From contig JBQTHP010000099.1 in NCBI GenBank assembly GCA_052389755.1, forward strand, positions 3,562-67,561: a DNA stretch of 64,000 nt, written 5' to 3'. Below the pieces are notes generated by a model. It ran no database searches and had not been told where the DNA came from. It was given only the letters and a program-made list of their open reading frames with translations. Every line of letters starts with the position of its first letter. The stretch's first letter is position 1. The position numbers and the translations under genes are program-made. Shown piece by piece: positions 13,371-61,955 of the stretch. Source of the stretch: Gammaproteobacteria bacterium (lineage in GTDB: Bacteria; Pseudomonadota; Gammaproteobacteria; Steroidobacterales; Steroidobacteraceae).

Positions 13371-14734
13371 GCGCCGCACCCCACAAACTGCTCATCGTCG
13401 AGGACGATCCTGGCCTGCAGCGCCAGCTCAAATGGGCATTGGACGGATTCGACGTGCGATGCGCCGCCACGCGCGACGAAGCCATCGCGCTGCTCAACCG
13501 AAACGAACCCGCGGTAGTGCTCCAGGATCTGGGTCTGCCCCCCGATCCCGGGGGCGTCGAAGAAGGCTTCGCCACCATCGAGGAGATCCAGCGCATCGCA
13601 CCGCGCGCGAAGATCATCGTAGTCACCGGTCAGGAAGGCCGCGACCATGCGCTACGTGCGATCGCGGCAGGCGCTTTCGACTTCTGTCAGAAGCCCGTCG
13701 ACACCCAACTGCTGTCGATCGTCGTCGACCGGGCGATTCGCATGTACGAGCTCGAAGCAGAGATCCAGCGGCTCAGCGAGACTCGCCCCGCGTCCGCGCT
13801 CGATGGCGTCATTGCCGCCAGCGCGTCGATGCTGAAGGTCTGCCGAATGATCGAACGTCTGGCGCCGACCGGGGCCACGGTCCTGCTTCTGGGCGAGAGC
13901 GGAACCGGCAAAGAGCGTCTCGCCCGTGCGCTGCACACGCTGAGCTCGCGCGCGTCGAAGCCCATGGTCGCCATCAATTGCGCGGCCATTCCCGAGACCC
14001 TTCTCGAAAGCGAACTGTTCGGCCACGAACGGGGGGCGTTCACGGGCGCCGTCAAGCAGACCATCGGCAGGATCGAAGGCGCCGCTGGCGGAACGCTGTT
14101 TCTGGACGAGATCGGCGACATGCCGCTCGCCCTCCAGACGAAGCTCCTTCGGTTCCTGCAGGAGCGGGTCATCGAGCGCATCGGTGGGCGCGAGCTCGTT
14201 GGCGTCGACGTACGAATCGTGGCTGCGACCAACCGAGACCTCGAAGCCGCAATCCAGCAGGGAACCTTTCGCTCCGATCTCTACTACAGGTTGAGCGAAG
14301 TTACGGTCGCGATCCCGCCGCTGCGCGAGCGGGAATCGGACGCAGTGCTGATTGCCACCTATCTGTTGCAGGAAGCCGCCCGGCGGCACGGACGGGGTGC
14401 TCTGCGCTTCTCACCAGACGCAGTACGGGCGATCGAGCAGAATCCGTGGCCGGGTAATGTGCGCGAGCTCGAGAACCGCGTGAACCGGGCGGCAATCATG
14501 ATCGAGGGCAGACTGGTCAGTAGCCAGGATCTCGGGCTCGCCCCAACGGAGGAGACCGACGACTTCCTGAATCTGCGGGACGTGCGGCAGCGGGCCGAAG
14601 CGCAGGCGGTTCGTCGGGCGCTCGCTATCACCGCGGGGAACGTCTCAAAGGCGGCGGAGCTCCTCGGAGTCACGCGGCCAACGCTCTATGCACTGATGGA
14701 ACGAAGCTCGATCCGGCAGGAGGGCGCGGGATGA
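13367..14734 (+). CDS. prsR: sigma-54-dependent response regulator PrsR (PEP-CTERM-box regulator)
   Basis: The start ATG overlaps the prsK stop (ATGA at 13367-13370). Receiver domain KLLIVEDDPGL, Walker A GESGTGKE, GAFTGA motif (ERGAFTGAV) and C-terminal Fis-type HTH GNVSKAAELLGVTRPTLY. Confidence 0.9.
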   Translation: MSAAPHKLLIVEDDPGLQRQLKWALDGFDVRCAATRDEAIALLNRNEPAVVLQDLGLPPDPGGVEEGFATIEEIQRIAPRAKIIVVTGQEGRDHALRAIAAGAFDFCQKPVDTQLLSIVVDRAIRMYELEAEIQRLSETRPASALDGVIAASASMLKVCRMIERLAPTGATVLLLGESGTGKERLARALHTLSSRASKPMVAINCAAIPETLLESELFGHERGAFTGAVKQTIGRIEGAAGGTLFLDEIGDMPLALQTKLLRFLQERVIERIGGRELVGVDVRIVAATNRDLEAAIQQGTFRSDLYYRLSEVTVAIPPLRERESDAVLIATYLLQEAARRHGRGALRFSPDAVRAIEQNPWPGNVRELENRVNRAAIMIEGRLVSSQDLGLAPTEETDDFLNLRDVRQRAEAQAVRRALAITAGNVSKAAELLGVTRPTLYALMERSSIRQEGAG

Positions 14735-23212: not shown

Positions 23213-24710
23213 GGCGCTCCGGGCGGCCGTGAGCATCGGGCGCGGTGCGCGCGTGTGGCTCGCCGTGGCCGGACTCGCGGCGCTCGTCGTGGCCATATAC
23301 AGCGAGAGCTTTCTCGCCATCGTGAAGCTGTGGACGCTGAGCGCCTACGCTCACTGCTTTCTCGTGTTTCCGATCGCGTTCTATCTGCTGTGGCGCCGCC
23401 GCCAGGCGCTGGCCGCGATCGCGATCGAGCCGAGCTGGCCAGGGCTCGCTCTCGTGTGTGGCCTGGCTGTCGCCTGGTTCGTGGGGCGCGCGATCGCATT
23501 GCAGGCGCTGGAGCACGCCGCCGCGATCGCTGCGATTCCCGCGATGGTGCTCGCGGTAATGGGCACGCGCTTCCTGCGCGCAGCGCTGTTGCCGATGGTA
23601 TTCCTGTTGCTGGCCGCTCCGGTCGGCGAGTTTCTCATTCCCGTTCTGATGGAAGTGACGGCGGCCATCGCGAGCTTGCTCCTCGGTGTCGTCGGCATCC
23701 CCGTGTATCGCGAGGGCATGTTCATCAGTCTGCCGGGCGGAGACTTCGAAGTCGCCGAGGTCTGCTCGGGATTGAAGTACCTGCTCGCCAGCCTGCCGCT
23801 CGCGTTGCTGTTTGCGTCGTGGGCCTATCGCCGGACGCTCCATCGCGTGGTGTTCGTCGCCGTCACGGTAGGTGTGTTCATCGTGGGCAATGGCCTGCGG
23901 GCGTTCATCGTGATGATCGTCGCCTCCGGGTCGGACCTGCGCTATTTCGCGGGCCAGGATCACGTCGTCTTCGGAAACGTGTTGTTCGTCGCGCTGCTCG
24001 CGCTCGTCTGCTGGGTGGGCTGGAAATACGCCGATCCGCCCGAGGCAGCGAAAGCGATCGGTCCAGCGGACTCGCACGCAGGAAGCGCCGTGCGCTCGAT
24101 CGCGGTCGCGGCCGCGGCGGCCGCGAGCCTCTCGGTCGGTTCCGCCGCCCATGCCTGGCGCGTGCCGGTGGCAGGGCCGGCCCCGACCGCGCCGCGGCTG
24201 CCGGCGCTCACCGGCTGCACCGGTCCCGGCGAATGGGCCGCCGACTGGACGCCGGTGCTGCTCGGAGCAAGTCTACAGACGCGGGCCACGTATCGCTGCG
24301 GCGAGATAGAAGTCCACATGCTGGTCGCTGCCTACCGCGGCACGAACCAGGGCCACGAGCTGGCGAGCAACGCCAATGTGCTCGTGCCTCAGGCGTGGTC
24401 CAGCAGCGGCTCGCGCGCGGACGCGCAGCTTGATCTCGGCGCAGACCGCACCCTGCTCATGAATGAAATTGCCATCGCTCGGTCCAGCCGTGCACTCTTC
24501 GCGTGGTACTGGTACAGCGTGAACGACGAGCCGACCCGTACGCCCCGCGGAGTGAAAGTGCGCGAAGCGCTGGGGGCGATCTTCCTGAAGCCCACCGTCT
24601 CCAGAGCGTACCTCGTCGCGGCCACTGGCCCTGCGGATCGCATCGAGGCGCTGCGCGGTCCGGTGATCGACCTTGCTCGAGAGGTCTGGCACGCACGGGA
24701 GGCGCGATGA
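23172..24710 (+). CDS. xrtA: exosortase A (XrtA/EpsH) fused to an EpsI-family domain
   Basis: The N-terminal ~300 aa is polytopic with exosortase-like blocks (YAHCFLVFPIAFYLLW, FEVAEVCSGLKYL, GNGLRAFIV). The C-terminal ~200 aa is soluble and resembles EpsI (TIGR02914), which is often a separate gene. Confidence 0.85.
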   Translation: MSVTSLPSRLSRLEALRAAVSIGRGARVWLAVAGLAALVVAIYSESFLAIVKLWTLSAYAHCFLVFPIAFYLLWRRRQALAAIAIEPSWPGLALVCGLAVAWFVGRAIALQALEHAAAIAAIPAMVLAVMGTRFLRAALLPMVFLLLAAPVGEFLIPVLMEVTAAIASLLLGVVGIPVYREGMFISLPGGDFEVAEVCSGLKYLLASLPLALLFASWAYRRTLHRVVFVAVTVGVFIVGNGLRAFIVMIVASGSDLRYFAGQDHVVFGNVLFVALLALVCWVGWKYADPPEAAKAIGPADSHAGSAVRSIAVAAAAAASLSVGSAAHAWRVPVAGPAPTAPRLPALTGCTGPGEWAADWTPVLLGASLQTRATYRCGEIEVHMLVAAYRGTNQGHELASNANVLVPQAWSSSGSRADAQLDLGADRTLLMNEIAIARSSRALFAWYWYSVNDEPTRTPRGVKVREALGAIFLKPTVSRAYLVAATGPADRIEALRGPVIDLAREVWHAREAR

Positions 24711-25876
24711 GGGCGGTCGTCGCGCGATCCGTGGATCCCCGCCCGCTGATCGTCCACGTGGTGTTTCGGTTCGACTACGGCGGCCTCGAAAATGGAGTGG
24801 TGAATCTCGTGAACGGCCTGCCGGAGAACGCGTTTCGTCACGTGATCGTGGCGCTTTCACAGGCGTCTGGCTTCGCGAACCGCATCTGGAGCACGGGCGT
24901 GCAAGTACACGAACTGAACAAACGGCCGGGTCACGACCCTGCCGCCTACCTCCGGCTGTTTCGCCTGCTGAAATCCCTTCGCCCGGCCATCGTTCACACT
25001 CGCAATCTCGGTACGCTGGAGGGCGCGCTGGTCGCGCGGCTCGCCGGTGCGCCATGCCGTATCCATGGAGAACACGGCTGGGACGTGCACGACGTGGACG
25101 GCGCGAGCCGCCGCTATCGCGCGATGCGCAAGCTCATCAATCCGGTGATCGACCGATTCGTGGCCGTATCGCGCGAGCTCGAGAGGTGGTTGACGGGAAC
25201 CGTCGGCATATCGCCGAGCAAGGTCGTTCGAATCTGCAACGGAGTCGACACGGCGCGGTTCACGCCTGCCGGCACCGCGCGGGACGCTCTTCGTTTCGGG
25301 CGGTTTCCGCGCGAAAGCCTCGTGGTCGGCAGCGTGACGCGTTTCAGCGAGATCAAGGATCCCCTCAATCTGGTGCGAGCCTTCATCGCGGCGCGCGGAG
25401 ATCCGGAGGGTGGTGCGCTGCGGCTCGTCATGGTCGGCGACGGCCCGTTGAAGCCTCAGGCGGAGCGTCTCCTGCGCGATGCGGGCGCCGCCGATGCCGC
25501 GTGGCTGCCCGGTAGCCGCGACGACGTGCCCGAGATGATGCGTGCCATGGACGTGTTCGTGCTGAGCTCCCGTCGCGAGGGAATCTCCAATACGATTCTC
25601 GAGGCCATGGCGTCGGGATTACCGGTGGTTGCGACGGCCACCGGCGGTAATCCCGAGCTCGTACTCGATGGTGTGACGGGGCAGCTCGTGCCTCCGTCGG
25701 AGCCGGCGGCGCTCGCGCGAGCGCTGGTCGCTTATGCCTGCAGCGCCACGGCACGCGCGGCGCACGGTCGTGCTGCGCGCGCGCGCGCGGAACGCGAGTA
25801 CTCGCTCGGCCGCATGGTGGCCGACTACGAGGCGCTCTATCGGGAACACTGCGTCACGACGGGAGAGGCGGCCTGA
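24707..25876 (+). CDS. glycosyltransferase family 4, PEP-CTERM/EpsH1 system-associated
   Basis: ATGA overlap with the xrtA stop. LIVHVVFRFDYGGLENGVVNLVN is the N-terminal block of the TIGR03088-type sugar transferase. C-terminal EGISNTILEAMASGLPVVAT is a GT4 E-x7-E region. Confidence 0.85.
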   Translation: MRAVVARSVDPRPLIVHVVFRFDYGGLENGVVNLVNGLPENAFRHVIVALSQASGFANRIWSTGVQVHELNKRPGHDPAAYLRLFRLLKSLRPAIVHTRNLGTLEGALVARLAGAPCRIHGEHGWDVHDVDGASRRYRAMRKLINPVIDRFVAVSRELERWLTGTVGISPSKVVRICNGVDTARFTPAGTARDALRFGRFPRESLVVGSVTRFSEIKDPLNLVRAFIAARGDPEGGALRLVMVGDGPLKPQAERLLRDAGAADAAWLPGSRDDVPEMMRAMDVFVLSSRREGISNTILEAMASGLPVVATATGGNPELVLDGVTGQLVPPSEPAALARALVAYACSATARAAHGRAARARAEREYSLGRMVADYEALYREHCVTTGEAA

Positions 25877-27822
25877 TGTGCGGCATCACGGGTATCGTCG
25901 ACCTACTCGATCAGCGCCCGGTGGATGAGCGCGTTCTGAGGGCGATGAACGCCTCGTTGAGCCACCGCGGCCCGGACGGCGACGGCTTTCACATCGAGCC
26001 GGGGGTCGGCTTCGGACATCGCAGGCTCTCGATCATAGACCTCGAAGGTGGCAAGCAGCCGCTCTATAACGAAGACGGAAGCGTCGTCGTCACGTTCAAT
26101 GGCGAGATCTTCAACTTCATGGAGATCGAGAGAGAGTTGCGGCACCGGGGACACGTCTTTCGCACGCGGTGCGACACGGAAGTGATCGTTCACGCGTGGG
26201 AGGAATGGGGCGAGAGTTGCCTGCAGCGATTCAACGGCATGTTCGCCTTCGCGGTATGGGATCGACGCCAGAAAGCCCTGTTCATCGCGCGCGATCGTCT
26301 CGGCGTGAAGCCGCTGCACTATGCCGTGCTGCCCGACGGCCGCCTGGTTTTCGCATCGGAGCTCAAGGCAGTTGTCGCGCATCCCCAGGTCTCCCTCGGC
26401 ATAGATCCTCAGGCCATAGAGGAGTACTTCGCCTTCGGCTACGTTCCGGATCCGAAGACGATCTATCACGCGGTCAGGAAACTCGAGCCGGGTGCGTACC
26501 TGAGCGTGCGGCGGGGAGCGGCGAAGATCGCTCCCGTGCGGTACTGGGACGTGCCGCTCTCGGGCAAGAAGCTTCCGGCGAGCCCGCCGTCGCACTGGGA
26601 GGCGGAGCTTCGCGAGCGGCTGCAGGAATCGGTTCGCAAGCGTCTCATCTCGGACGTGCCGCTGGGCGCCTTCCTTTCCGGAGGCATCGATTCGAGCGCG
26701 GTCGTGGCAATGATGCGCGAGATCGGAGCAAACCGGATTCTCACGTGCTCGATCGGTTTTCGGGAGCCGCAGTTCGACGAGTCGAGCTACGCCGAGATCG
26801 TCGCGCGCGCAAAGAACACCGATCATGAGACCGAGATCGTCGAAGCCTCGGACTTTGGTCTGCTCGAACGGCTGGTGGACCTCTACGACGAGCCCTACGC
26901 CGACAGCTCCGCGATACCGACCTATCGAGTCTGCCAGCTCGCTCGGCGCCACGTGACCGTGGCGCTCTCAGGTGACGGCGGTGATGAGACCTTCATCGGA
27001 TACAGGCGGTACAAGCTCTTCGCGATGGAGCAGTCGGTGCGCGATCGACTTCCGGCATCAGTGAGGCGCGCCATCTTCACGCCGCTGGGACGCTGGTTTC
27101 CAAAGCTTGATTGGGCGCCGCGTTTCCTGCGCGCCAAGACGACATTCCAGGCGCTGGGGCGCGACACGATGGACGCCTACCTTCATGGCGTATCGGTCTG
27201 CTCCGACGAAGACCGCGCGGCTCTTTTCTCCGCCGGGTTCCGCCGAGACCTCCAGGGCTACGATGCGCGTGAGGTGTTCCGTCGTCACCTCGAGGGCAGA
27301 TCGTTCGACGACCCGCTCTCGCTCGTACAATACCTCGACTTCAAGACCTATCTGCCGGGCGACATCCTGACGAAGGTCGATCGCGCGAGCATGGCTCACA
27401 GCCTCGAAGTGCGCACGCCGTTTCTCGACTACGAATTCATCGCGTGGGCTTCGCAGCTGCCCTCCAACGTCAAGCTGCGCGGTGGCGTGGGCAAGCACAT
27501 TCTCAAGGAAGCGCTGCGGCCGCTTCTGCCCGCGGAGATCCTGTTTCGGTCGAAAATGGGTTTTGCCGTACCCATCGATGCGTGGTTCCGCGGATCACTC
27601 AAGTCCAGGGTCGCAGGCGCAATTCGGAGTCCGCACATGCGCGACTCCGGGATCTTCGATACGGATCACCTCGATCGTCTGCTCCGGGAGCACGCGAGTG
27701 GCCGGCGCAACCACAGTATGGTTCTGTGGGCGCTTCTGATGTTCGAGGGATTCATGCGCCGACAAACCGCGCCCGCCGCCCGCCTCGTCGAGACGATGCC
27801 ACCGGCGGCAGTGGCCATCTGA
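25876..27822 (+). CDS. asparagine synthase family amidotransferase, paralog 2 (exosortase A-associated amidotransferase 1-like)
   Basis: MCGITGIVD (Cys2), HRGPDG, SGGIDSSAV. It follows the GT directly (shared A of TGATG-type junction at 25876). Confidence 0.9.
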   Translation: MCGITGIVDLLDQRPVDERVLRAMNASLSHRGPDGDGFHIEPGVGFGHRRLSIIDLEGGKQPLYNEDGSVVVTFNGEIFNFMEIERELRHRGHVFRTRCDTEVIVHAWEEWGESCLQRFNGMFAFAVWDRRQKALFIARDRLGVKPLHYAVLPDGRLVFASELKAVVAHPQVSLGIDPQAIEEYFAFGYVPDPKTIYHAVRKLEPGAYLSVRRGAAKIAPVRYWDVPLSGKKLPASPPSHWEAELRERLQESVRKRLISDVPLGAFLSGGIDSSAVVAMMREIGANRILTCSIGFREPQFDESSYAEIVARAKNTDHETEIVEASDFGLLERLVDLYDEPYADSSAIPTYRVCQLARRHVTVALSGDGGDETFIGYRRYKLFAMEQSVRDRLPASVRRAIFTPLGRWFPKLDWAPRFLRAKTTFQALGRDTMDAYLHGVSVCSDEDRAALFSAGFRRDLQGYDAREVFRRHLEGRSFDDPLSLVQYLDFKTYLPGDILTKVDRASMAHSLEVRTPFLDYEFIAWASQLPSNVKLRGGVGKHILKEALRPLLPAEILFRSKMGFAVPIDAWFRGSLKSRVAGAIRSPHMRDSGIFDTDHLDRLLREHASGRRNHSMVLWALLMFEGFMRRQTAPAARLVETMPPAAVAI

Positions 27823-34697: not shown

Positions 34698-35510
34698 ATG
34701 ATCGCGTCTCGTTTCCTCGAGGGTCGACGTGGGCGGATCTTCGCGGTGATGCACCGGCCGGCAACAGGATCGGGTCGCGGGGTACTCGTCGTGCCCCCGT
34801 TCGCCGAGGAGATGAACAAGTCGCGACCGATGATTCGCGATGTGGCGCGCGAGCTCCTGAAGCACGGCGTCGCCACCGTCGTCCCGGACTTGTTCGGAAC
34901 CGGCGACAGCGAGGGAGAGTTTTGCGACGCGGATTGGCAGGTCTGGAAGGCCGACCTGCAGACGGCGGCTGTCTGGGCGAGACGAGAAGGTTGGCCGATC
35001 TCGGCTTTGCTCTGCGTGCGTCTCGGATGCGCCCTCGGCGCGGCGGCGGCGCGCGATTCGCTTCCCGGGATAGAGTGCACCGTATTCTGGCAGGCCGTTA
35101 CGAGCGGGCCGTCTTTCCTCGCCCAGTTTCTGCGCCTGCGCGTTGCTGCCTCCATCGGCGATGACCAGAGGAAAACCGTCAACGAACTCAGGGAGCAACT
35201 GTCCGCTGGTCAGGCACTCGAGGTGGCGGGATACGAACTGACTCCACGTCTCGCAGTGCAGCTCGAGCAGGTGCGGCTTGCCGACGTCCTCGGCCCGCAG
35301 TTGGGACAACTGCACTGGATGGACGTGGTGAGGCGCTCGGAGTCCGAGCTGTCGACTTCGGCACGGGAGGCGATCTCATCGGCGAAGTCCGCTTCCGTTC
35401 CGGTCACTGCCTGCCCGGTAGTGGGAGAGCCATTCTGGTCGTCGACCGAAATCGTCCGCGTTCCGGCGCTCGCAGATCGGACAGTTCGAGCGTTGGTGTC
35501 GAGTTCGTGA
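34698..35510 (+). CDS. alpha/beta hydrolase 2, exosortase A system-associated
   Basis: GRIFAVMHRP...VLVVPPFAEEMNKSR...PDLFGTGDSEGEF resembles TIGR03101-type hydrolase 2. It is adjacent to its usual paralog. Confidence 0.8.
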   Translation: MIASRFLEGRRGRIFAVMHRPATGSGRGVLVVPPFAEEMNKSRPMIRDVARELLKHGVATVVPDLFGTGDSEGEFCDADWQVWKADLQTAAVWARREGWPISALLCVRLGCALGAAAARDSLPGIECTVFWQAVTSGPSFLAQFLRLRVAASIGDDQRKTVNELREQLSAGQALEVAGYELTPRLAVQLEQVRLADVLGPQLGQLHWMDVVRRSESELSTSAREAISSAKSASVPVTACPVVGEPFWSSTEIVRVPALADRTVRALVSSS

Positions 35511-36391
35511 AGGATTGGACGGAACAACCCGTCGTCTTCGCATGCGGCGAAAGCGCGCTCCTGGGTATTGTCCACCATGCGCGGGGTCAATCTGCCGGAT
35601 TAGGCGTGCTCGTGGTCGTCGGGGGTCCCCAGTATCGCGTCGGAAGTCATCGACAGTTCACGTTGATGGCGCGGGCGCTGGCGGCCGGCGGTTTCCCGGT
35701 GATGCGGTTCGACTACCGCGGAATGGGAGACAGCGAGGGTGAGACCAGGAGCTTCGAAGCGGTAGGCGCTGACATTCGCGCCGCGATCGACGCATTCGTG
35801 CATGCCGTTCCATCCCTTCGAACGTTGGTCTTATGGGGGTTGTGTGATGCGGCGTCTGCGATCCTCATCGACGGTTGCGATGATCCGCGCGTAGGCGGAC
35901 TGATCCTCGTCAATCCATGGGTGCGAACGGGAGCCGGCGAAGCTCGAAGTTACGTGAGGAACTATTACCCAACGAGATTGCTGCACCCGACCCTGTGGAG
36001 GAAGCTGTTTTCCGGCCGGCTCAATCCATCGAAGGCGCTCGCCGAGTTTTTCCGAACGTATCGCCTGGCGCGGACGTACCGGGCAGAAGACAGCGTGGGC
36101 GGATCTCATTTCATCGAACGAATGCGGCTCGGTCTCGAAGCATTCCGCGGTCCGGTACTCGTACTGCTCAGCGAACGGGATCTGACCGCTCGGGAATTCG
36201 CCGATCTTGCGGGTAACGCGAGCTCGTGGAGCCGCATCATGACGAGAAGCAACGTACGCGTCGTCGATGTCCTGGGCGCCGATCACACGTTCTCGGAGCG
36301 CAAGGCGCTGGCGGAGGCGATCGAGCATTGCAGAGCGCAGCTGGAAGGTCTTCTCGGGTCGAATCGTGCCGAGATCGGCAATGCGAAGTAG
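35507..36391 (+). CDS. alpha/beta hydrolase 1, exosortase A system-associated
   Basis: GTGA overlap with the previous gene. VVVGGPQYRVGSHRQF...RFDYRGMGDSEGE...LWGLCDAAS resembles TIGR03100-type hydrolase 1. Confidence 0.8.
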   Translation: MKDWTEQPVVFACGESALLGIVHHARGQSAGLGVLVVVGGPQYRVGSHRQFTLMARALAAGGFPVMRFDYRGMGDSEGETRSFEAVGADIRAAIDAFVHAVPSLRTLVLWGLCDAASAILIDGCDDPRVGGLILVNPWVRTGAGEARSYVRNYYPTRLLHPTLWRKLFSGRLNPSKALAEFFRTYRLARTYRAEDSVGGSHFIERMRLGLEAFRGPVLVLLSERDLTAREFADLAGNASSWSRIMTRSNVRVVDVLGADHTFSERKALAEAIEHCRAQLEGLLGSNRAEIGNAK

Positions 36392-38586: not shown

Positions 38587-39402
38587 ATGACAAGCGGCCC
38601 GCCAGCTGCAGACCCATTCACGGAGTACTACGCGCGCGAAAGCCTGAGTGAGGCCACGCGTGCACGGTTCGCCGGCACCAAGGACGCGATCTTCTGCGTA
38701 CTCCGACAACGCGGTCTCCCGTGCGAGCGGCTCACCGTGGCGGATATCGGTTGCGGTGCAGCCACGCAGGCAATCCTGTGGGCGCGCGACGGGCACCGGG
38801 TATTTGGAGCTGACATCAACGAGCAACTGATCGCGCTCGGTCGCGAACGCGTGCGAGAGGCGGGTGTGCGCGTGGAGCTCGAGGCAGCGAGCGCCGTGAG
38901 ACTGCCCTGGGCCTCACAGAGCATGGACGTCTGTCTTTTGCCGGAGCTGCTGGAACACGTCCGCGACTGGCGCAAGTGTCTCAGTGAAGCGGCACGCCTG
39001 CTCAAACCGAGCGGCCTGCTCTTTATCAGCACCACGAACCGCCTCTGTCCGGTGCAGCAGGAGTTCGAGCTGCCGTTCTACAGCTGGTATCCGGCGCGTC
39101 TCAAACGGCGCTTCGAACGGCTCGCGACGACGACGCGCCCAGATCTCGTAAACAACGCAGAGTTCCCGGCTGTCCACTGGTTCGATTTCTATTCGCTGCG
39201 GCGCGCGCCCGAGCTGAGTGAGTTCACCTGCCTGGATCGCTTCGACGTCGCCGCGCTGCGCGAGCGAGGCGCGGCGACACGAACCCTCCTCAAGCTCATC
39301 ACGCAATCGCCGCTCTTGCGCGGGCTCGCGCACGTTGCCACTCCGTACACCACTGTGTTTGCGATACGCAGCCGCCCCATGATGCCGGACGCTCGGCAGT
39401 AG
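38587..39402 (+). CDS. class I SAM-dependent methyltransferase
   Basis: VADIGCGAATQA (motif I), VFGADIN, MDVCLLPELLEHV and LKPSGLLFISTTN. The ATG at 38587 is preferred to the GTG at 38551. Confidence 0.8.
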   Translation: MTSGPPAADPFTEYYARESLSEATRARFAGTKDAIFCVLRQRGLPCERLTVADIGCGAATQAILWARDGHRVFGADINEQLIALGRERVREAGVRVELEAASAVRLPWASQSMDVCLLPELLEHVRDWRKCLSEAARLLKPSGLLFISTTNRLCPVQQEFELPFYSWYPARLKRRFERLATTTRPDLVNNAEFPAVHWFDFYSLRRAPELSEFTCLDRFDVAALRERGAATRTLLKLITQSPLLRGLAHVATPYTTVFAIRSRPMMPDARQ

Positions 39403-39529
39403 ACGGCCGTTCGAACGCGGCTGCGCGATTAGTTGGAAGTGCGAAGCACGTCACGCAACCTCGCGTCAGAGGCGGTTGTCGTTCGCTAACGACAATTGCG
39501 GAGGAGTCGAGTGTCCGGGTACAGTGATT

Positions 39530-39621
39530 CCAGCGAAAGGGCAAACCCGTCGTAAGGCGGGGACGCAAAGCCACCGGTCCGTGGGATTCGAGGATAGCGG
39601 GGTTGCCGGATGAAACGCTGG
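39530..39621 (+). promoter_or_regulatory. c-di-GMP-I (GEMM-I) riboswitch aptamer
   Basis: CCAGCG-AAAGGGCAAACC-CGUC-GUAA-GGCG-GGGACGCAAAGCCACCGG...AUAGCGGGGUUGCCGGAUG-AAA-CGCUGG. All conserved GEMM-I blocks are present in order, with a GNRA-capped hairpin and a closing P1 CCAGCG/CGCUGG. It lies 111 nt upstream of the ATG at 39733. Confidence 0.85.
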
Positions 39622-39732
39622 GGTAGTCCGAGCGGTTCACAGCCACCTGCCGATTCCCGCCGATCCTCTAGCGACCATGTCGATTCGGATGGTCAGCGTC
39701 GTAATGCGTGTGTTTCAGCTGGGGAGTGTTGA

Positions 39733-40980
39733 ATGAAACGTAGGGATTTCCTCGCTACGTCCGCGGGCCTCGCCGGTGCGATGCTTCCGGCTCTGGGACG
39801 GGGTCTACCGTGCCCTCCGCCCGCATTGAGCGCAGTTGGTGGAACGTCGTCCACGAACCCCTGCAATGCACCGGGCACTGCGCCGGCTTGGTTCACAGGC
39901 ATGGGTGACAGGACCTGGGCCGCGCCTGTGAGCAACTGGCTGGGAGCGAGTGGTGTAAAGGATCCGCTCGCGGACACGATCAACCGCGGGAACGACGGAC
40001 ACTCCGCGCTCATCAGCAACTGGACGGGCATGCTGGCGGATGACACGCGTCGCATGATCGCCATGCTCGGGAACGGAGGGCATGCGGGTTACAACGGCAA
40101 CGAGGTTTACTCGTGCGACCTCGGCCTGAGTACGCCGGCTTGGGTGCGGCGTCGCAACGCGACACCATCTGTGCCGGGAGTAGATCTGACGAAATGGCCG
40201 GACGGCAGTCCCGTGGCGGACCACACCGCGCAGTTACAGTGCGCGGGCGGAGGCCGCTGGTTCAAGTTCGGCCTCGCCTCAACGAACTACAACGGCTGGG
40301 CTCACTACGAGAGTTGGTGGGAGTACAGCCTCGAGAGTGAGGACTACATCGATCGGTCGAGTTCGGCTTACGCCTTGAGCGGCTCGGTGCTTGCGGTCGA
40401 TGGCCTCGCGCTCTTCGATCCGATCGACCGGAGTTTCCTGGTCTTTCACAAGAACTTCGTGTCGCCGGGGATTGGTGTTGTTGATTCCAATACGCTCGCA
40501 CTCAAACGAGGTGCAAACCCAGGCGGCTTCGCCACCTCCAACACACTGACCGCAGCGATCGACACGAAGCGCCGTCTGCTTCTCGTGCGCATGGATATCG
40601 GCTGTGAAGTGTGGAACCTCGAAAACTTCACCAAGCTCGCGACGATCACACCTAGCGGTGCGCAGCCAACTCTGCACAGCTCACTGTACTATCACGAACC
40701 CTCTGATGCCTTCATTACTTGGGATGGTGGCAGCAGCATCCGAAAGCTCAAGCCTACCGTGAATGCGCAGGGCACCAATTACACCGCGGTTGCGTGGTCA
40801 AGCGTGACGCCTGCTGGTGGTAGCACGGCCACTCCTCCGGGAAGTGGTCCGGAGCAGGGCATGTATAACAAAGTGCAGCTTCTGCAGAACATGGGAAACG
40901 GACAGAGCGCGCTCGTCATCGTGCCGCAGTACGCCGCACCCGACGTGTTCGTGTTCAAGCTCCCTGCGACAGGCATCTGA
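39733..40980 (+). CDS. Tat-signal secreted protein of unknown function (possibly beta-propeller-like)
   Basis: GGGGAG SD at 39721-39726. Twin-arginine motif MKRRDFLATSAG...ALGRG, then PCPPP...GGTS..PC. The remainder is rich in short W/G/N beta-like segments (GNGGHAGYNGNEVYSCDL). No family could be assigned. Confidence 0.75.
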   Translation: MKRRDFLATSAGLAGAMLPALGRGLPCPPPALSAVGGTSSTNPCNAPGTAPAWFTGMGDRTWAAPVSNWLGASGVKDPLADTINRGNDGHSALISNWTGMLADDTRRMIAMLGNGGHAGYNGNEVYSCDLGLSTPAWVRRRNATPSVPGVDLTKWPDGSPVADHTAQLQCAGGGRWFKFGLASTNYNGWAHYESWWEYSLESEDYIDRSSSAYALSGSVLAVDGLALFDPIDRSFLVFHKNFVSPGIGVVDSNTLALKRGANPGGFATSNTLTAAIDTKRRLLLVRMDIGCEVWNLENFTKLATITPSGAQPTLHSSLYYHEPSDAFITWDGGSSIRKLKPTVNAQGTNYTAVAWSSVTPAGGSTATPPGSGPEQGMYNKVQLLQNMGNGQSALVIVPQYAAPDVFVFKLPATGI

Positions 40981-41015: not shown

Positions 41016-42143
41016 ATGAAGCGCAGAGATTTCCTCTTGTCGTCTGCTGGAGTTGCGGGCGTCATTCTGCCGGCCTTGGGCAGGGGACAGAATCGACCGT
41101 GTCCTCCGCCTTCCGTCAACGTCAGCGGGGGAACGTCGGCGACGACGCCATGCGGTAGTGCCACCGCAGAAGCGGACTGGCTCGCGCGCTCCACCGGCCA
41201 GGGCGTTGTCTGGGCGCACGACTTCCGGAATCAGGCCGAAGTCGATCTCTTCCGCTGGACCGGAGGATACTCGGGCGGTAACGATCCACTCGGGAAGGGC
41301 AGCGGTGCCATGAAGTGTTTCCGCCAGACTGCTGACGGTGTCACCGGCGGTGCGTGTCTCGAGCAGATTCGGCCTGCGGGAGCCAATGAAGCCTCGGGTG
41401 CGTGGTGGCGTCCCTTCTCGGCCGTGAATAACAACGGGCGCGGATTTCCTGATCCGGCAGCGAATGGCACTGTGCCGGTGCAGAATTGGAATCCCACGGA
41501 CGGCGGCAATCAGACGAATAGTTGGGGGACGCGGGGTGTCTACGGTCATCCCAGTTACGCTGGACCCGGCTTTGACGGTACCGAGTTTTATCTCCAGATG
41601 CGCGTCAGGATGGACCCGCGTCGACTCAGCACTGGCATGCCACAGGTCGGTAAGCTCACCTTTTTGTCGCACACCGCAGCCTCGCTTACCGCGCAGGAAC
41701 TCGTGACGTATTCGGGCGCGATCTTCAATGGACGGAACTTCTTCCGCGTGTACGGCCCGGGATTCACGCCGCTGGAAGTGCTCGACATACTGGGACGCCC
41801 CGGGCAGCAGGTCGGGAACGATCTCGGGTTCTGCGATGTTACAGCGAGTCCCGGCAACTGCTGGGCGTGGTCGGGCGGCTGGGACACCGTGATGTACCAC
41901 ATCACGCCCGGTAGACGAGGTGTCGCGGAAACGCGCTTCGTAGTTCTTGCCGCGCATGAAGGCGAGACGGTGTACCGCAAGATCTGGGACCAAGGCTATG
42001 CGACCAACTATGACTTCGACAACGGCTGGAATGCGCTGATCACCTCGACCTTCCAGAACGGGTTCCCCTGCCCAAGTGAGTTCTGGCACCGCTACGATCA
42101 GATCATTCTGTCCAAGCAGTTCATTGCCTGTCCGTTGGTATGA
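41016..42143 (+). CDS. Tat-signal secreted protein of unknown function; N-terminal module paralogous to the upstream gene
   Basis: MKRRDFLLSSAGVAGVILPALGRGQNRPCPPPSVNVSGGTSATTPC is about 65 percent identical to the first ~48 aa of the 39733 protein. The rest is unrelated by eye. It starts 35 nt after the upstream stop, so is probably co-transcribed. Confidence 0.75.
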   Translation: MKRRDFLLSSAGVAGVILPALGRGQNRPCPPPSVNVSGGTSATTPCGSATAEADWLARSTGQGVVWAHDFRNQAEVDLFRWTGGYSGGNDPLGKGSGAMKCFRQTADGVTGGACLEQIRPAGANEASGAWWRPFSAVNNNGRGFPDPAANGTVPVQNWNPTDGGNQTNSWGTRGVYGHPSYAGPGFDGTEFYLQMRVRMDPRRLSTGMPQVGKLTFLSHTAASLTAQELVTYSGAIFNGRNFFRVYGPGFTPLEVLDILGRPGQQVGNDLGFCDVTASPGNCWAWSGGWDTVMYHITPGRRGVAETRFVVLAAHEGETVYRKIWDQGYATNYDFDNGWNALITSTFQNGFPCPSEFWHRYDQIILSKQFIACPLV

Positions 42144-42313: not shown

Positions 42314-43063
42314 ATGCGCGCAGCCCCGCACACGATCCTCACATTCATATGCGTGTCGGTATCCGCCTACGTTCTCGGAGCCGCGTGTGTTCCTGGGGCC
42401 GCCTCCGCCGCGCAGCCGCACGTTGATGATTTTGTTGCGTGTGGCAAGAAGCGCGAGATAAAAACGGGGGGAAACTACGGGCTAACCGATTACCGCTTGC
42501 GAGAGATCTCGTCGGCGACGAAGCGCGCCCTCGCTGACCTGGATTCGCACCACACGAATCCCGCGGTGGAAGCCATGTTCCGCGGCGCCTACGGCGGAGA
42601 GGTCAAGGCCGACCTGAACTTTACGTTGGTGCATTCCCCGAATCACCATCGAGCATTGCAGGCATTGGTTCAGTACGATCGCGCGGGAGGCAAGGCTGGC
42701 GGATTTCCGGCCACGGAGTGCTATTTCCATTGGGCGCAGGTTTTCGCACCTGACGACTCCCGAGTTTGGATGATAGGGGGTTACTACTTCTGGACGAAAG
42801 GTGACCGTTCGCGGGCGGAGACGTGGTACCGCCAGGCGCTCCAGTTCGACCCCGAATACGCCGACGCACACTACAATCTCGGCCTGCTCTACTTCGAGCT
42901 GGCGGATTTCGAGCGATCTCTCGAGCATGCGCGGGCCGCGTATGAAGCTGGCTACCCCTTGGTAGGACTACGAAACAAGCTCGAGCGCTCGGGACATTGG
43001 CAGGCGTCGCCGCCGCCCGCGCCGCTGCAATCCGCCGAAAATCCCCGGGACAACGGCAGGTGA
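42314..43063 (+). CDS. secreted TPR-repeat protein
   Basis: Signal peptide ILTFICVSVSAYVLGAACVPGAASA. TPR units AETWYRQALQFDPEYADAHYNLGLLYFELADFERSLEHARAA. Confidence 0.7.
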   Translation: MRAAPHTILTFICVSVSAYVLGAACVPGAASAAQPHVDDFVACGKKREIKTGGNYGLTDYRLREISSATKRALADLDSHHTNPAVEAMFRGAYGGEVKADLNFTLVHSPNHHRALQALVQYDRAGGKAGGFPATECYFHWAQVFAPDDSRVWMIGGYYFWTKGDRSRAETWYRQALQFDPEYADAHYNLGLLYFELADFERSLEHARAAYEAGYPLVGLRNKLERSGHWQASPPPAPLQSAENPRDNGR

Positions 43064-45817: not shown

Positions 45818-47182
45818 GTGTCCCGCGTGAGTTTCACCAGCGTCCTGTTTCTGCTGGGGTTCATGGCAGGCCTTGGCCTCGCGTTCGTCAAACATCCCAT
45901 CTTCGGACTCATCACTTATGTAGGCGTGTTCTATCTTCACCCGCCCGCCAGATGGTGGGGTTACGCACTTCCGGATCTGCGATGGTCTTTGTTAGCTGCC
46001 GCAATCACATTGCTCGCAGTGTTCGTCGCGCGAAAGAAGCCGGGTCCGCAGCGTTCACGGGAATCCGTGATCATCGGTCTGCTCGTGTTCGTCATGTGGC
46101 TCGGCATTCAGACGCCGTGGGCCCTCAGTCGCGACCTTCACCTGGAACTGCTCACACTGATGGCGAAATACGCGCTGCTGTTGGTGCTCATGCACAAATG
46201 CATCGACTCGGAGCAGCACCTGAAAGTCTTTGTCTGGAGCCACGTCGCTGGTACCTGCTTTCTCGGATGGATTACCTTCACGGAGTACCTGGGTGGTCGG
46301 TTCGAGGGGTTCGGTGCGCCGAACATCGATGAGGCGAACGCAGGTGCTTTGCAGATCGTTACCGGCATATTCGCCGCATCCGGGCTGTTGCTGGCAGGCA
46401 AGCTTACCGAGCGCGCATTCCTGTTGGGCTCCATTCCGCTTATCGTAAATGCATTCGTTGCGACCATGAGTCGCAGTGGGTTTTTGGCGGCCGCGTTCGG
46501 TGGATTCGTCTTCAATCTGTTCACACCGAGCCGCTTCCGTCGGCGCGTTCGCGTCCTGTCGATCCTTGCACTGGTGCTGTTCGCGCTGCTAACCAACCCG
46601 ATCTATTGGATGCGCATCGCCTCCTTGAAGCAGCTCGGCGAAGAAGTGGAGGGCGTCGATACCGGTGCTGGCCGAATCGTGCTTCTAACGGCGCAATGGC
46701 ACATGTTCGGGCAGCATCCGCTCGGGTGTGGACATCGCTGCACGGCGGTCCTGAGTCCGGCGTTTCTCGACGACAAGCATCTGACTGGGATCGGCGAAAA
46801 CCGGGCACGATCATCTCACAGTACTCCCATGAGCATGCTCGTCGAGCACGGCTTTCCAGGGGCACTATTTTATGTCCTGCTGATTGGTTGGACGTCGAAA
46901 GCCCTGCTGAAGGTCCGTCGCGAACATGCAGGCGCCTCGGGATTGGTGGCATCTTTGATCCCGGCCGTCGCCGCAGCGCTCGGCGCCATCACGATCAGCG
47001 ATCTTTTCGTAGACAATATTCGGCTCGAAGTCAGATTCTGGTTCATAGGAATTCTGTTGGCGCTGATGCGAATGCCTGTCATGCACGCCCAACCGGCAGC
47101 CGAAAGCAGTCGGGCGGTGGGCTTCAGACGAACACCTCTGCCGGCGCGGGATGACTCAGAAAGCCGAGCGGGCTCGCCGTAA
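45818..47182 (+). CDS. O-antigen ligase-like (Wzy_C) membrane protein, exosortase A system-associated putative O-glycosylation ligase
   Basis: Polytopic. FVKHPIFGLITYVGVFYLHPP N-terminus, the central loop MSRSGFLAAAFG and HSTPMSMLVEHGFPG resemble TIGR03097-type proteins. GTG start at 45818 (or 45827). Confidence 0.75.
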   Translation: MSRVSFTSVLFLLGFMAGLGLAFVKHPIFGLITYVGVFYLHPPARWWGYALPDLRWSLLAAAITLLAVFVARKKPGPQRSRESVIIGLLVFVMWLGIQTPWALSRDLHLELLTLMAKYALLLVLMHKCIDSEQHLKVFVWSHVAGTCFLGWITFTEYLGGRFEGFGAPNIDEANAGALQIVTGIFAASGLLLAGKLTERAFLLGSIPLIVNAFVATMSRSGFLAAAFGGFVFNLFTPSRFRRRVRVLSILALVLFALLTNPIYWMRIASLKQLGEEVEGVDTGAGRIVLLTAQWHMFGQHPLGCGHRCTAVLSPAFLDDKHLTGIGENRARSSHSTPMSMLVEHGFPGALFYVLLIGWTSKALLKVRREHAGASGLVASLIPAVAAALGAITISDLFVDNIRLEVRFWFIGILLALMRMPVMHAQPAAESSRAVGFRRTPLPARDDSESRAGSP

Positions 47183-48362
47183 GCCCATAGGCGCCGCTCT
47201 GCAGGATCACGATGAGATCGTCGACCTCTGCGCTCGCGAGCTCGACGCGATCCGCGAGTAGATCGAGCGGCGTGCACAACGGTCCCACCACGGACGCGAT
47301 CTCACGTCTGGTTCCCCGCACGCGATTGCCGACGATCACAGGGTAGTTCTTGCGGATGACCTGACCGAAGTTTCCCGAGGCAGCGAGGTGATGGTGCAGG
47401 CCGCCGTCAGTTATCAGAAAGACCTGACCACGAGACACCTTACGGTCGATCACGCGACATACAAAGATGCCGGCCTCACCGACAAGATAACGCCCGAGCT
47501 CCAGTACCAGGGTCGCCTCAGGAAGCTGCATCCGCAGCGCCTCGATCATGCCGGTGAGGTTCGCCGCGATGGGCGCAATGTCGAGCGGTTTTTCACCAGG
47601 GAAGTACGGGATCCCGAAGCCGCCGCCGACGTTGAGAATTCTCACGGGTGCAGGTGCTACGCGCGCGAGGCTCAGTGCGAGTGCCAGAGAGTTCTGCTGG
47701 GCTTCGATGATAGCCTCGGCGCGCAGATTCTGTGAGCCACTGAAGATGTGAAAGCCGATGAACTGCAGCGGCAAACCGGCTATATGTCTGAGCAAGTCCG
47801 GCACGCACTCGGCATCCACACCGAACTGCTTCGGGCCGCCGCCCATCTTCATACCGGATGCCTTCAGCTCGAAGTCGGGATTCACGCGAACCGCTACCCG
47901 CGGGCGGGTACCCGACTGCGCCGCCAACTCGCCAAGGCGCTGCAGTTCGAGCTCCGATTCCACGTTGAGCACGATGCCCGCCGCGACCGCTGCCGCCAGC
48001 TCCGCGGGCGTCTTGCCCGGCCCCGCGAAGCTGATGCGTTCGGCGGGAACGCCGGCATCGAGCGCCACCTGCATTTCGCGGGCGGAAGCAACGTCCACAC
48101 CATCTACGAGCCGACCCAGATACCTGACCACGTCCGGCATGGGGTTGGCTTTCATGGCGTAATGAAGATGTACCGCGGTGGGAAGCATGCGCCGCAGCTG
48201 CGCCACACGATCCGCAAGATGCTGCCGCGCGTATGCGTAGAAGGGCGTTCGTCCGGCCTCGCTCGCGACATCGAGGAGCGATCGTCCGCCGATCGTGAGG
48301 CAGTCGTCGCGTACTCCGAAGAACGGATGTGGAGCATGCTGCGGCAGCGAGTCGAGGCTCAA
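47124..48362 (-). CDS. pyridoxal-dependent decarboxylase (Orn/DAP/Arg decarboxylase fold), exosortase A system-associated
   Basis: FYAYARQHL...HYAMKANP (PLP Lys), GGGFGIPY and SGAYG motifs. It overlaps the upstream ligase gene by 4 nt. Confidence 0.85.
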   Translation of the reverse strand: MSLDSLPQHAPHPFFGVRDDCLTIGGRSLLDVASEAGRTPFYAYARQHLADRVAQLRRMLPTAVHLHYAMKANPMPDVVRYLGRLVDGVDVASAREMQVALDAGVPAERISFAGPGKTPAELAAAVAAGIVLNVESELELQRLGELAAQSGTRPRVAVRVNPDFELKASGMKMGGGPKQFGVDAECVPDLLRHIAGLPLQFIGFHIFSGSQNLRAEAIIEAQQNSLALALSLARVAPAPVRILNVGGGFGIPYFPGEKPLDIAPIAANLTGMIEALRMQLPEATLVLELGRYLVGEAGIFVCRVIDRKVSRGQVFLITDGGLHHHLAASGNFGQVIRKNYPVIVGNRVRGTRREIASVVGPLCTPLDLLADRVELASAEVDDLIVILQSGAYGLTASPLGFLSHPAPAEVFV

Positions 48363-49948
48363 GCGACACCCTCCGCGTACAGAGCTCTGAGCTCTTCCGC
48401 CAACTTCGTGCGATCGTATTTTCCGTTGGGGTTGCGCGGAAGCTCATCCCGCCACTCGACGTGATGCGGCACCATGAATGCCGGGAGCTGCCGTCGGCAC
48501 GCGGCGAGTAGCTCATCCTTGTCGACGGTGGCGCCGCGCACCGGCGTCGCGACGATTACTATCGCCTGGCCGAGCGCGGGATGAGGAACACCGACTGCCG
48601 CGACATCCGCCACCAGCCCGGTATCAAAGACGATCTCTTCGACTTCTGTGGGACTGACGCGATAGCCGGATGTCTTGATCATCTCGTCGCGTCGACCGAT
48701 GAAGTACAGGTAACCTTCCGCGTCCATCCGCACGGTGTCCCCCGACCATACCGCCATTTCCTTCAGCACGAGATTCGGGTCCTGCCCCGGCACGGGCTTG
48801 AAGCGCTCAGCGGTCTTCTCCAGATCGTTCCAGTAACCGAGCGCGACGAGCGAGCCGCGGTGGACGAGCTCGCCCGGTTCGTTCGGTCCGCAGCGGGTGC
48901 CGTCCGGCCGTACCACGATGATCTCGGCGCTCGGAATCGCCTTGCCGATCGAATCCGGTCGTCGGTCGACCTCCGAGGGGGGCAGGTACGTCGACCGGAA
49001 CGCCTCGGTGAGGCCGTACATCAGAAACACCTGCGTGTCCGGCAGTGTGCTGCGCAGTTTCTGCAGCGTGGCACGAGGCATCGCGCCCCCGGAATTCGTG
49101 ATGTAGCGCAGACGTCGCGCGACTTCCGTCGGCCATTCGACGTTGACCAGCTGTGCCCAAAGCGACGGCACACCGGCGAGGCCCGTTACGTGTTCTCGGC
49201 TTGCGATCGTGAGCACGTCCCTGGCAAAGAGGTAGTCCATGAGAACCACGCTGGCGCCGACGTGGAAGGCCGTCGAGAGCTGGCTGAAACCGTAGTCGAA
49301 ACTGAGGGGCAGGGCGGCGAGCAGCCGATCCTGCGGCACGTTGCCGAGGTAGCGCGCGACACTGTGTGCGCCAGTAACCATGTTCTTGTGAGAGAGCACC
49401 ACCCCCTTCGGTTTGCCTGTGCTCCCCGAGGTGTAGAAGATCGCGACGACATCGGCATCGATGACCCGATGCATCTGCCGCGCATCCGCGGCCCGAAGCA
49501 GGGAGTCCCAGGCATGCACCGCGAGTCGATCCGGTCGCGGACGCGGCGAGAAGTTGTCCGTCACTATGAGATGCTGCAAGTCGGGACAGTGGGGCAGCAC
49601 CTCGCCGAGGTCTTGCGCGCGCTCCGGTGAAGTCACGAGAACCCGCACGTTGCAGTCGCGCAGGACGTACCCCACCTGTACTGGCTTGAGCAGTGGATTC
49701 ACTGGTACGAACACGCAGCCGGCGCGCGCCGTGCCGAAGATGGCGACCACGGCTTCCGGCTGCTTCGGCAGGTAGATCGCCACGCGTTCCAGCCGGCCAA
49801 GCCCAAGCTGCATGAGCGCCGTGCCGAAACGCTCGATGCCCAAGCCGAGCGTGCCGTAGTCGAGCGTTTTCCCTTTGAACACCAGGCTCGGCGCGTGGGA
49901 TGCACGTTCGGCCGAACGTAACGGAAGTTCGAACAGCAGTTCACTCAT
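48359..49948 (-). CDS. acyl-CoA ligase (AMP-forming), exosortase A system-associated
   Basis: AMP-binding signature IFYTSGSTGKPKGVVLSH, YGLTE, SGDTVRMDAEGYLYFIGRRDEMIKTSGYRVSPTEVE and PRNPNGKYDR. Confidence 0.88.
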   Translation of the reverse strand: MSELLFELPLRSAERASHAPSLVFKGKTLDYGTLGLGIERFGTALMQLGLGRLERVAIYLPKQPEAVVAIFGTARAGCVFVPVNPLLKPVQVGYVLRDCNVRVLVTSPERAQDLGEVLPHCPDLQHLIVTDNFSPRPRPDRLAVHAWDSLLRAADARQMHRVIDADVVAIFYTSGSTGKPKGVVLSHKNMVTGAHSVARYLGNVPQDRLLAALPLSFDYGFSQLSTAFHVGASVVLMDYLFARDVLTIASREHVTGLAGVPSLWAQLVNVEWPTEVARRLRYITNSGGAMPRATLQKLRSTLPDTQVFLMYGLTEAFRSTYLPPSEVDRRPDSIGKAIPSAEIIVVRPDGTRCGPNEPGELVHRGSLVALGYWNDLEKTAERFKPVPGQDPNLVLKEMAVWSGDTVRMDAEGYLYFIGRRDEMIKTSGYRVSPTEVEEIVFDTGLVADVAAVGVPHPALGQAIVIVATPVRGATVDKDELLAACRRQLPAFMVPHHVEWRDELPRNPNGKYDRTKLAEELRALYAEGVA

Positions 49949-50209
49949 GCGTGGAATCCAACCCGGTGCGGTCGCGCGGATGCGCTTGTCATTGGCGGAA
50001 ATAGTATCAAGCGGATCGTGCAGTGTGCGGCCACGGCTCGTGCCTCGAAGGCGCTAAAAATGCCCGGATATGTTCAAATCGGCCGATGTGCCCGGGCAGC
50101 CGCCCTAGCGTAAAGATTCGCACGCAGGTGATTGAAATGAATATCATGTTATCTAGTCAGATACGATATTTCGGGATTCGAGATCTCGATTTCCGACCGG
50201 AGAGTAACG

Positions 50210-61826: not shown

Positions 61827-61955
61827 TGTTAGTAGTGCCGCAGGACACCGCGGGGAGCAATATCAATATGTCAAGAGGCGCCTTGGTGTCGGGAAACGCA
61901 TCGCCACGATCCGACACAATACTGCGCATCTTACGGGCGCGTCCGGAATAATTGT

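Follow-up and report, generated by a model that had tools for sequence, protein, structure and literature searches.

A stretch of 64,000 nucleotides (nt) from a gammaproteobacterium of the Steroidobacteraceae (contig JBQTHP010000099.1 of assembly GCA_052389755.1), hereafter called the window, includes an exopolysaccharide (EPS) locus of the XrtA/PEP-CTERM type. Judging from sequence and comparative evidence, nucleotides 39527-39624 of the plus strand very probably form (at a probability of roughly 0.8) a functional, canonical type-2 riboswitch aptamer of the cyclic diguanylate-I (c-di-GMP-I or GEMM-I) class, placed in the leader of a unit of two or three genes within this cluster. The first gene of the unit, propA, encodes a Kelch-like beta-propeller protein with a signal sequence and is followed by protB. 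The 39-kb RNA would act as a direct c-di-GMP input to the locus, beside its PrsK/PrsR/sigma-54 control.

The whole window was searched on both strands with cmscan against 4227 Rfam families, and three matches exceeded their gathering scores, one being a tRNA and the other two RNAs of the c-di-GMP-I clan. The 39-kb match, to family RF03167 (65.9 bits against a gathering score of 59), covers the full length of the model. In a gathering-threshold run on positions 39450-39740, one more, lower-scoring match of the clan reached at least its own gathering score; this match, displayed without family name and score, is almost certainly RF01051 (gathering score 35), and through it RF01051 very probably stands above its threshold here. 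These matches uphold the class proposed in an earlier reading of the DNA made from the letters alone (the sequence-only reading), whose quoted 92 nt are exactly 39530-39621 of the plus strand with all four of its listed blocks present. A covariance model built from both aptamers of the window, R1, scores the 39-kb aptamer at 98.8 bits, a value obtained with that aptamer itself in the model.

The secondary structure, too, has good support. The isolated 100-nt RNA adopts the P1/P2/P3 architecture unaided in RNAfold. Across 11 aptamers aligned from the window and from related loci (A5), 97.3% of the cells are paired and compensatory changes occur in 11 of 20 pairs, values reached by none of 500 shuffles; sliding the 3' partners by one to three columns lowers the pairing to 30-48%. 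A5 was fitted to the covariance model, which favours the structure somewhat, and the margin is large. The inner P1 itself covaries over the 11 aptamers, with UA in five, CG in four and GC in one for one pair, and GC in eight, CG in one and UA in one for the other. Loop type and receptor covary perfectly in A5: GAAA loops go with a CUAAG...UAUG receptor in P3, whereas the aptamers with GUAA, GUGA or GCGA loops, both window copies included, have no such receptor. The 39-kb RNA, with its GUAA loop, is thus of the receptor-less GYRA subtype, as had been supposed.

One detail of the sequence-only reading, the closing helix, is not upheld. A 6-base-pair (bp) P1 made of CCAGCG (39530-39535) and CGCUGG (39616-39621) had been proposed; these strands are complementary, and RNAfold uses the helix, which grows to 9 bp when the RNA is folded in isolation, but the conserved, covarying P1 is the pair of base pairs C39534-G39608 and G39535-C39607. 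Both helices compete for C39534 and G39535 and are mutually exclusive there. The outer 7 bp (39527-39533 with 39618-39624) can stack beneath the inner P1 over a 9-nt 3' bulge.

Class and probable ligand of the 39-kb aptamer

The prototype of the class is the Vc2 riboswitch of Vibrio cholerae (RF01051), reportedly described by Sudarsan et al. in 2008. The ligand is held in Vc2 by G20, which contacts one of its guanines, by A47, which intercalates between both ligand bases, and by C92, which forms a Watson-Crick pair with the other guanine. We take G39540, A39567 and C39606 to be the equivalents of these bases, following the numbering of the crystal structures, and G, A and C occupy the three positions in all 11 aptamers of A5. 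The 39-kb RNA and Vc2 further share the three-helix junction, the invariant GGCAAACC, GACGCAAAGC and AGCGGGG blocks and a GNRA-type P2 loop, and the 39-kb RNA likewise sits in a 5' leader ahead of a gene for a secreted or surface protein. Unlike Vc2, which has a tetraloop receptor, it is of type 2, with a GUAA loop and a short P3 lacking the receptor; its J1/2 is one nucleotide shorter, it carries the additional 7-bp outer helix past the 9-nt 3' bulge, and its expression platform is unrelated. Given the fold, the covarying pairs and the canonical bases at all three contact positions, c-di-GMP would be expected to bind in the three-helix junction that the inner P1 closes.

The best Rfam family is nevertheless not that of the prototype, which the sequence-only reading had not foreseen. 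RF03167, of clan CL00126, is the c-di-GMP-I-GGC variant, reportedly described by Weinberg et al. in 2017 (the meaning of "GGC" being deduced here from the Rfam consensus lines). The 39-kb RNA could be a true member with an altered site and a different or unknown ligand, and its score above threshold over the full model span speaks for this. However, the consensus of the junction strand is GACGC-G-AA in RF03167 and GACGC-A-AA in RF01051, and the window reads GACGC-A-AA, so that the cmscan match line against RF03167 is blank at that column. Three other aptamers assigned to RF03167 by Rfam likewise have the canonical A; the four so labelled lie at 39532-39611 in the window, 5512-5599 in locus L024, 2307-2391 in L035 and 3640-3724 on the minus strand of L068. 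Membership in the variant is therefore extremely improbable. The RF03167 label is misleading because the variant-defining G, which replaces A47, is absent at 39567: by the definition of the binding site the RNA is not a member, and the top score reflects the common architecture, with a modelled P1 and a short, receptor-less P3, rather than the variant base. Since its contact bases are canonical despite RF03167 being the top model, the 39-kb RNA is, by its sequence, an ordinary type-2 c-di-GMP-I aptamer. RF03167 may systematically capture canonical A47 aptamers of this type, and a naive Rfam run or automated annotation would mislabel them as "GGC variant".

Another ligand of the clan is 3',3'-cyclic GMP-AMP (cGAMP), sensed by the GEMM-Ib riboswitches of Geobacter, which have A at position 20 and terminator platforms. 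The 39-kb RNA shares their clan and fold, and the Geobacter examples also lie near PEP-motif or exosortase-substrate genes, as the 39-kb RNA lies near exosortase-linked genes. An A at position 20 is said to be associated with cGAMP selectivity (attributed to Kellenberger and to Nelson, both 2015), but the 39-kb RNA has G39540 there, as do all the aligned aptamers, and no terminator was found in its leader. That it senses cGAMP is thus very unlikely.

The window carries a second c-di-GMP-I aptamer on the minus strand at 11 kb, in the divergent gap adjoining prsK. This copy matches RF01051 with 62.7 bits, has a GUGA loop and the canonical G, A and C, and its 5' half is nearly identical to that of the 39-kb copy. 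Downstream of it stands a gene for an Ig-repeat lipoprotein (N-terminus MMRTL...LTAC), to which it would give a direct c-di-GMP input; its leader carries a CCCCGG/CCGGGG anti-Shine-Dalgarno/Shine-Dalgarno pair. A Pfam scan of some 55 open reading frames (ORFs) of the window found no GGDEF, EAL, HD-GYP or PilZ domain, in keeping with what the sequence-only reading had stated for three of these. Its conclusion that the 39-kb RNA is the only visible c-di-GMP input fails on the second aptamer.

The near identity of the first ~55 nt of both aptamers also raises the possibility that the 39-kb copy is a decaying, non-functional paralogue left by duplication and devoid of a regulatory role, the more so as a riboswitch is absent from the nearest homologous cassettes, which function all the same. 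Against such decay, no conserved base of the junction or of the ligand contacts has been lost and pairing is kept in every helix, the differences from the 11-kb copy in P3 keeping the pairing (G-U to G-C, C-G to U-G). A relative with 92% identity keeps the aptamer and leader with ~7 changes in ~190 nt in spite of 8% protein divergence, and genes of this family stand under riboswitch control in several further lineages. A decayed copy is, for these reasons, very improbable. The three independent Logan contigs L081, L083 and L084 of the 92% relative all begin at the same base within the aptamer (CAAACCCG...), and L082 begins further downstream within it. Breaks of this kind are to be expected if the conserved 5' half is repeated in many copies and so interrupts the assembly graphs.

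The leader and its candidate expression platform

The aptamer lies 121 nt upstream of the propA ATG (39733), on the same strand, and a GGGGAG Shine-Dalgarno (SD) sequence precedes this codon. On the other side, a class-I methyltransferase gene stops at 39402, 128 nt before the aptamer. Ligand binding would alter the expression of the downstream genes through this 121-nt leader, most probably at translation initiation, because no intrinsic terminator is found between aptamer and ATG and because the SD region repeats the 3' strand of the outer P1 exactly. Within 38800-40200, the sole terminator-like site lies inside the methyltransferase gene. The heptamer GCUGGGG is present twice, in the outer-P1 3' strand (39617-39623) and in the SD region (39718-39724), and UUCCAGC (39528-39534) and CUCUAGC (39666-39672) are each complementary to both copies. 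The four strands are numbered 1 to 4 in Table 1.

On structure modelling, the platform probably works by sequestration of the SD. In one tentative logic, which has a reasonable if not an even chance, bound ligand would lock strands 1 and 2 together, strand 3 would pair with the SD and translation would be off; in the absence of ligand, strands 2 and 3 would pair, or the linker would invade P3, leaving the SD free. The opposite logic, in which the 5' strand of P1 would sequester the SD when ligand is absent so that binding turns translation on, is possible but rather doubtful. In isolated segments, the helix of strands 2 and 3 (39616-39623 with 39665-39673) has 8 bp and -20.7 kcal/mol, and the alternative hairpin 39661-39731 pairs 39666-39672 with 39718-39724, burying the SD, at -21.4 kcal/mol; this hairpin is predicted in the 92% relative too, where the SD region is identical. 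The full leader left unconstrained has a different minimum-free-energy fold (-93.7 kcal/mol), in which strand 1 takes up the SD (39528-39534 with 39718-39724) and the linker 39650-39700 is bound to the aptamer's 3' half. Enforcing the aptamer raises the energy to between -70 and -77 kcal/mol and leaves strand 3 as the partner of the SD. All these energies are RNAfold predictions. The duplex of linker and aptamer 3' half is more stable than expected (-52.6 against -39.8 +/- 4.1 kcal/mol in shuffles, z -3.1, reached by 3 of 500), but the cofold energy (z -1.4) and that of the whole leader (z -1.25) are unremarkable; with such mixed statistics, a role of the linker as an "anti-aptamer" is no more than a suggestion.

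Several of these results weigh against a riboswitch that switches in this manner. The SD is largely paired both in the unconstrained fold and with the aptamer enforced. By 17-24 kcal/mol the fold lacking the aptamer is the more stable one, which would leave only kinetic control. Neither the candidate hairpins nor the whole leader surpass shuffled sequences in stability (z -0.5 for the SD-burying hairpin, -1.2 for the helix of strands 2 and 3, -1.25 for the whole leader, and -1.84 in a further comparison). The leaders available for comparison are all near-identical, and by inspection the substitutions of the 92% relative do not separate the platform models. In addition, the 128 nt between the methyltransferase stop and the aptamer yielded no promoter.

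The aptamer might therefore be real and yet act on transcription, through Rho-dependent termination or processive read-through from the methyltransferase operon. The missing promoter points this way, as do the length of the leader, which is C-rich in places, and the lack of statistical support for the SD-sequestering helices. Read by eye and without a terminator scan, the leader of locus L029 shows a hairpin and a U-run just before the SD. However, the window leader has no intrinsic terminator, and the duplicated GCUGGGG with its two complementary strands has the look of a translational platform, so that transcriptional control is a rather unlikely, though serious, alternative to control of translation initiation.

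Promoters were also sought by motif. A sigma-70 promoter was rejected for 38800-40200, where no match was obtained. A sigma-54 promoter in front of the aptamer was dismissed as well, the lone match with three mismatches overlapping the aptamer and the window-wide counts being those of chance. A perfect 8+4+8 palindrome, TTGTCGTTCGCTAACGACAA, unique in the window, occupies 39476-39495, on the 5' side of the outer P1 helix and separated from it by 31 nt. An operator is one possible role for it, a processing or terminator hairpin of the upstream methyltransferase gene another.

Downstream genes and recurrence of the pairing

Table 1. Elements of the 39-kb and 11-kb riboswitches and annotated genes of the window
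Feature	Positions	Strand	Description
c-di-GMP-I aptamer core	39532-39611	+	RF03167, 65.9 bits, gathering score 59, E 2.4e-13
Outer helix, 5' strand (strand 1)	39527-39533	+	AUUCCAG; pairs with 39618-39624 (RNAfold, isolated aptamer)
Inner P1, 5' strand	39534-39535	+	C39534-G39608, G39535-C39607; Rfam consensus-structure line
Equivalent of Vc2 G20 (presumed)	39540	+	G; directly 5' of the invariant G39541-C39566 pair (alignments)
P2 hairpin	39546-39561	+	CCCGUC-GUAA-GGCGGG; GYRA loop 39552-39555; compensatory changes in 5/6 pairs
Equivalent of Vc2 A47 (presumed)	39567	+	A; G in RF03167; A in 11/11 aligned aptamers
P3 hairpin	39569-39604	+	AGCC-A-CCGGUC ... GAU-AG-CGG-GGUU; short, without tetraloop receptor
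Equivalent of Vc2 C92 (presumed)	39606	+	C; base 5' of inner P1 (alignments)
Inner P1, 3' strand	39607-39608	+	Rfam consensus-structure line and A5 covariation
Outer helix, 3' strand (strand 2)	39616-39624	+	CGCUGGGGU; contains GCUGGGG, heptamer of the SD region
Strand 3	39665-39673	+	CCUCUAGCG; complementary to strand 2 and SD region; candidate anti-SD or switching strand
SD region (strand 4)	39718-39726	+	GCUGGGGAG; GGGGAG ends 6 nt before AUG
propA	39733-40980	+	415 aa; Tat-like signal (MKRRDFL...), Kelch-like beta-propeller; first gene 3' of aptamer
protB	41016-42143	+	375 aa; 35 nt downstream of propA, probably co-transcribed
TPR protein gene	42314-43063	+	perhaps the unit's third gene, after a 170-nt gap; accompanies propA/protB in many loci
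Second c-di-GMP-I aptamer	11008-11100	-	RF01051, 62.7 bits, gathering score 35; divergent gap adjoining prsK
Ig-repeat lipoprotein gene	9389-10903	-	downstream of 11-kb aptamer; He_PIG, Big_9, Cadherin_4, fn3 domains
DUF4114/PEP-CTERM protein gene	2347-3246
PrsT	4958-7828	-	TIGR02917, 492 bits
PrsK	11196-13370		TIGR02916, 620 bits
PrsR	13055-14734		TIGR02915, 655 bits
XrtA with EpsI domain	23109-24710		TIGR03109, 246 bits (cut-off 208)
hydr2_PEP	34698-35510		TIGR03101, 228 bits
hydr1_PEP	35507-36391		TIGR03100, 328 bits
XrtA-associated decarboxylase dCO2ase_PEP1	47124-48443	-	TIGR03099, 606 bits
XrtA-associated acyl-CoA ligase ligase_PEP_1	48359-50053	-	TIGR03098, 764 bits

The AlphaFold2 model of PropA is a beta-propeller with a predicted local distance difference test score of 84.4 and a predicted template-modelling (TM) score of 0.85; the Pfam match to the twin-arginine translocation (Tat) signal is weak. 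Foldseek against the PDB retrieved only generic propellers (YncE, Kelch, WD40; TM 0.3-0.5), so that no specific function emerged. Designed Kelch propellers are among the matches of the family profile, at 1e-11. ProtB has no Pfam, NCBIfam or PDB match. Its likeness to PropA is confined to the first ~50-90 residues, with the Tat-like signal MKRRDFL...LPALGRG, PCPPP and GGTSxTxPC, and the remainders are unrelated. Both proteins were considered as exosortase substrates and rejected: they end in ...FVFKLPATGI and ...FIACPLV, lack a PEP-CTERM tail and give no PF07589 match. Gene direction reverses after the TPR protein.

PropA has ~27 clear homologues in a set of 5.8 billion proteins, and hundreds of distant ones in GTDB genomes, mostly of uncultured Gammaproteobacteria including Steroidobacteraceae and Woeseiaceae. 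By tblastn, propA, protB and the TPR protein gene adjoin hydr2/hydr1, GT4, Wzy and the decarboxylase/ligase pair in many loci. The three genes are thus an XrtA-locus cassette, for which propA and protB lack a Pfam or NCBIfam model.

Riboswitches precede the more distant members of this propeller family in other proteobacterial loci. By R1 and Rfam (50-83 bits), a c-di-GMP-I aptamer stands immediately before a propA-like gene in each of L024, L029, L068, L074 and L077, where the propeller genes are more distant and longer and encode Sec signals. A sixth aptamer occupies the corresponding position in L059, where the propeller match falls short of the tblastn threshold of E 1e-8 and the gene start is ambiguous; in L035 a further aptamer precedes the next gene. 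The order in L024 is that of the window, with hydr2_PEP (256 bits), hydr1_PEP (332 bits), GT4, aptamer and propeller, at 50% GC for the aptamer and ~25% identity of the propeller to PropA. Around the L029 aptamer stand hydr1, GT4, TPR and an XrtA-type O-antigen-ligase homologue; the fetched flanks of L068, L074 and L077 hold only GT4/TPR homologues. The pairing of riboswitch and propeller is thus recurrent, though not universal, in at least five other loci from proteobacterial metagenome-assembled genomes, and it demonstrably occurs inside XrtA loci at least twice.

L068 has two c-di-GMP-I aptamers, at 3640-3724 on the minus strand and 5526-5610 on the plus strand, which flank one GT4 gene and face outwards to two secreted-protein genes. 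Its propeller protein has a sorting-signal-like tail (GGS...LLLGLGALVAARRR).

The nearest relatives speak against a fixed association. The closest homologues of PropA (30-48% identity; L001-L011, L086 and L087) stand in the same XrtA-locus arrangement without a riboswitch. A conserved riboswitch in the nearest propA loci was therefore rejected, as no Rfam match was obtained in L001-L011 and no R1 match in L001-L023, L086 and L087. Since the closest homologous XrtA loci do without it, the riboswitch is dispensable for the cassette. A broader reading, for which the chances fall just short of even, is that a c-di-GMP-I riboswitch before a secreted Kelch-like propeller gene and after hydr2-hydr1-GT4 is a recurrent module of proteobacterial XrtA loci; it would give an RNA-level c-di-GMP input parallel to PrsK/PrsR/sigma-54 and mark propA/protB as a c-di-GMP-tuned step.

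The XrtA locus and known systems

Regulation of XrtA/PEP-CTERM systems has been described via PrsK/PrsR and sigma-54, and the window encodes PrsK and PrsR. All NCBIfam scores in Table 1 exceed the respective cut-offs. The eight XrtA-system models have genes on both sides of the 39-kb riboswitch, and the cluster also encodes an XrtA amidotransferase and FemAB-like proteins. The surroundings are accordingly a bona fide XrtA/PrsK/PrsR/PrsT locus, which upholds the exosortase A/PEP-CTERM context given in the sequence-only reading. Three asparagine-synthase-type amidotransferase genes are present on the plus strand (21281-23212, 25651-27822 and 61836-63734), two of them flanking xrtA; the middle one, the only copy compared, matches the XrtA/PEP-CTERM amidotransferase model with 969 bits. 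The best sigma-54-like -24/-12 match of the window, TGGTACGCCCGTTGCT at 2393-2408 on the plus strand with one mismatch, lies at the 5' end of the DUF4114/PEP-CTERM ORF, and is consistent with PrsR/sigma-54 control of an exosortase substrate.

The novelty implied earlier for a riboswitch in such a system was overstated. In the EPS cluster of Methylophaga nitratireducenticrescens GP59, four c-di-GMP riboswitches are listed over a span of 18 kb, and every one of them precedes a PEP-CTERM or VPLPA-CTERM gene (PMC12530212). GP59 and the window thus both have several c-di-GMP riboswitches in an exosortase-type EPS locus, each before a secreted-protein gene. However, the GP59 genes encode exosortase substrates with a PEP-CTERM tail, whereas PropA and ProtB have Tat-like signals and no such tail, and the propeller family is conserved adjoining the hydr1/hydr2 genes of XrtA systems. 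In Geobacter, gsu1945 and gsu1948 are listed among the genes regulated by GEMM-I riboswitches (PMC10599522), and by their locus numbers they adjoin the PEP-motif exosortase-substrate genes GSU1943/GSU1944. In full-text literature searches for riboswitches with exosortase or PEP-CTERM, these two papers were the sole results, and neither seems to describe the pairing with a propA/protB cassette adjoining hydr1/hydr2.

XrtA/PEP-CTERM systems are the driving force behind the flocs and biofilms of environmental and wastewater bacteria. The class of the 39-kb RNA, its ligand and the habit of preceding secreted or biofilm genes are textbook matter, and its identification is routine annotation; what appears to be new is the pairing of riboswitch and propeller in XrtA loci, an incremental regulatory detail rather than a new kind of element. 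The window shows two c-di-GMP riboswitches wired into one XrtA locus, and the pairing points to a testable link of c-di-GMP with an uncharacterised, locus-conserved secreted pair, PropA and ProtB, thereby offering a handle on the function of both proteins. If the link is true, c-di-GMP would tune the step that propA/protB carry out, which might be, for instance, the modification or degradation of the EPS.

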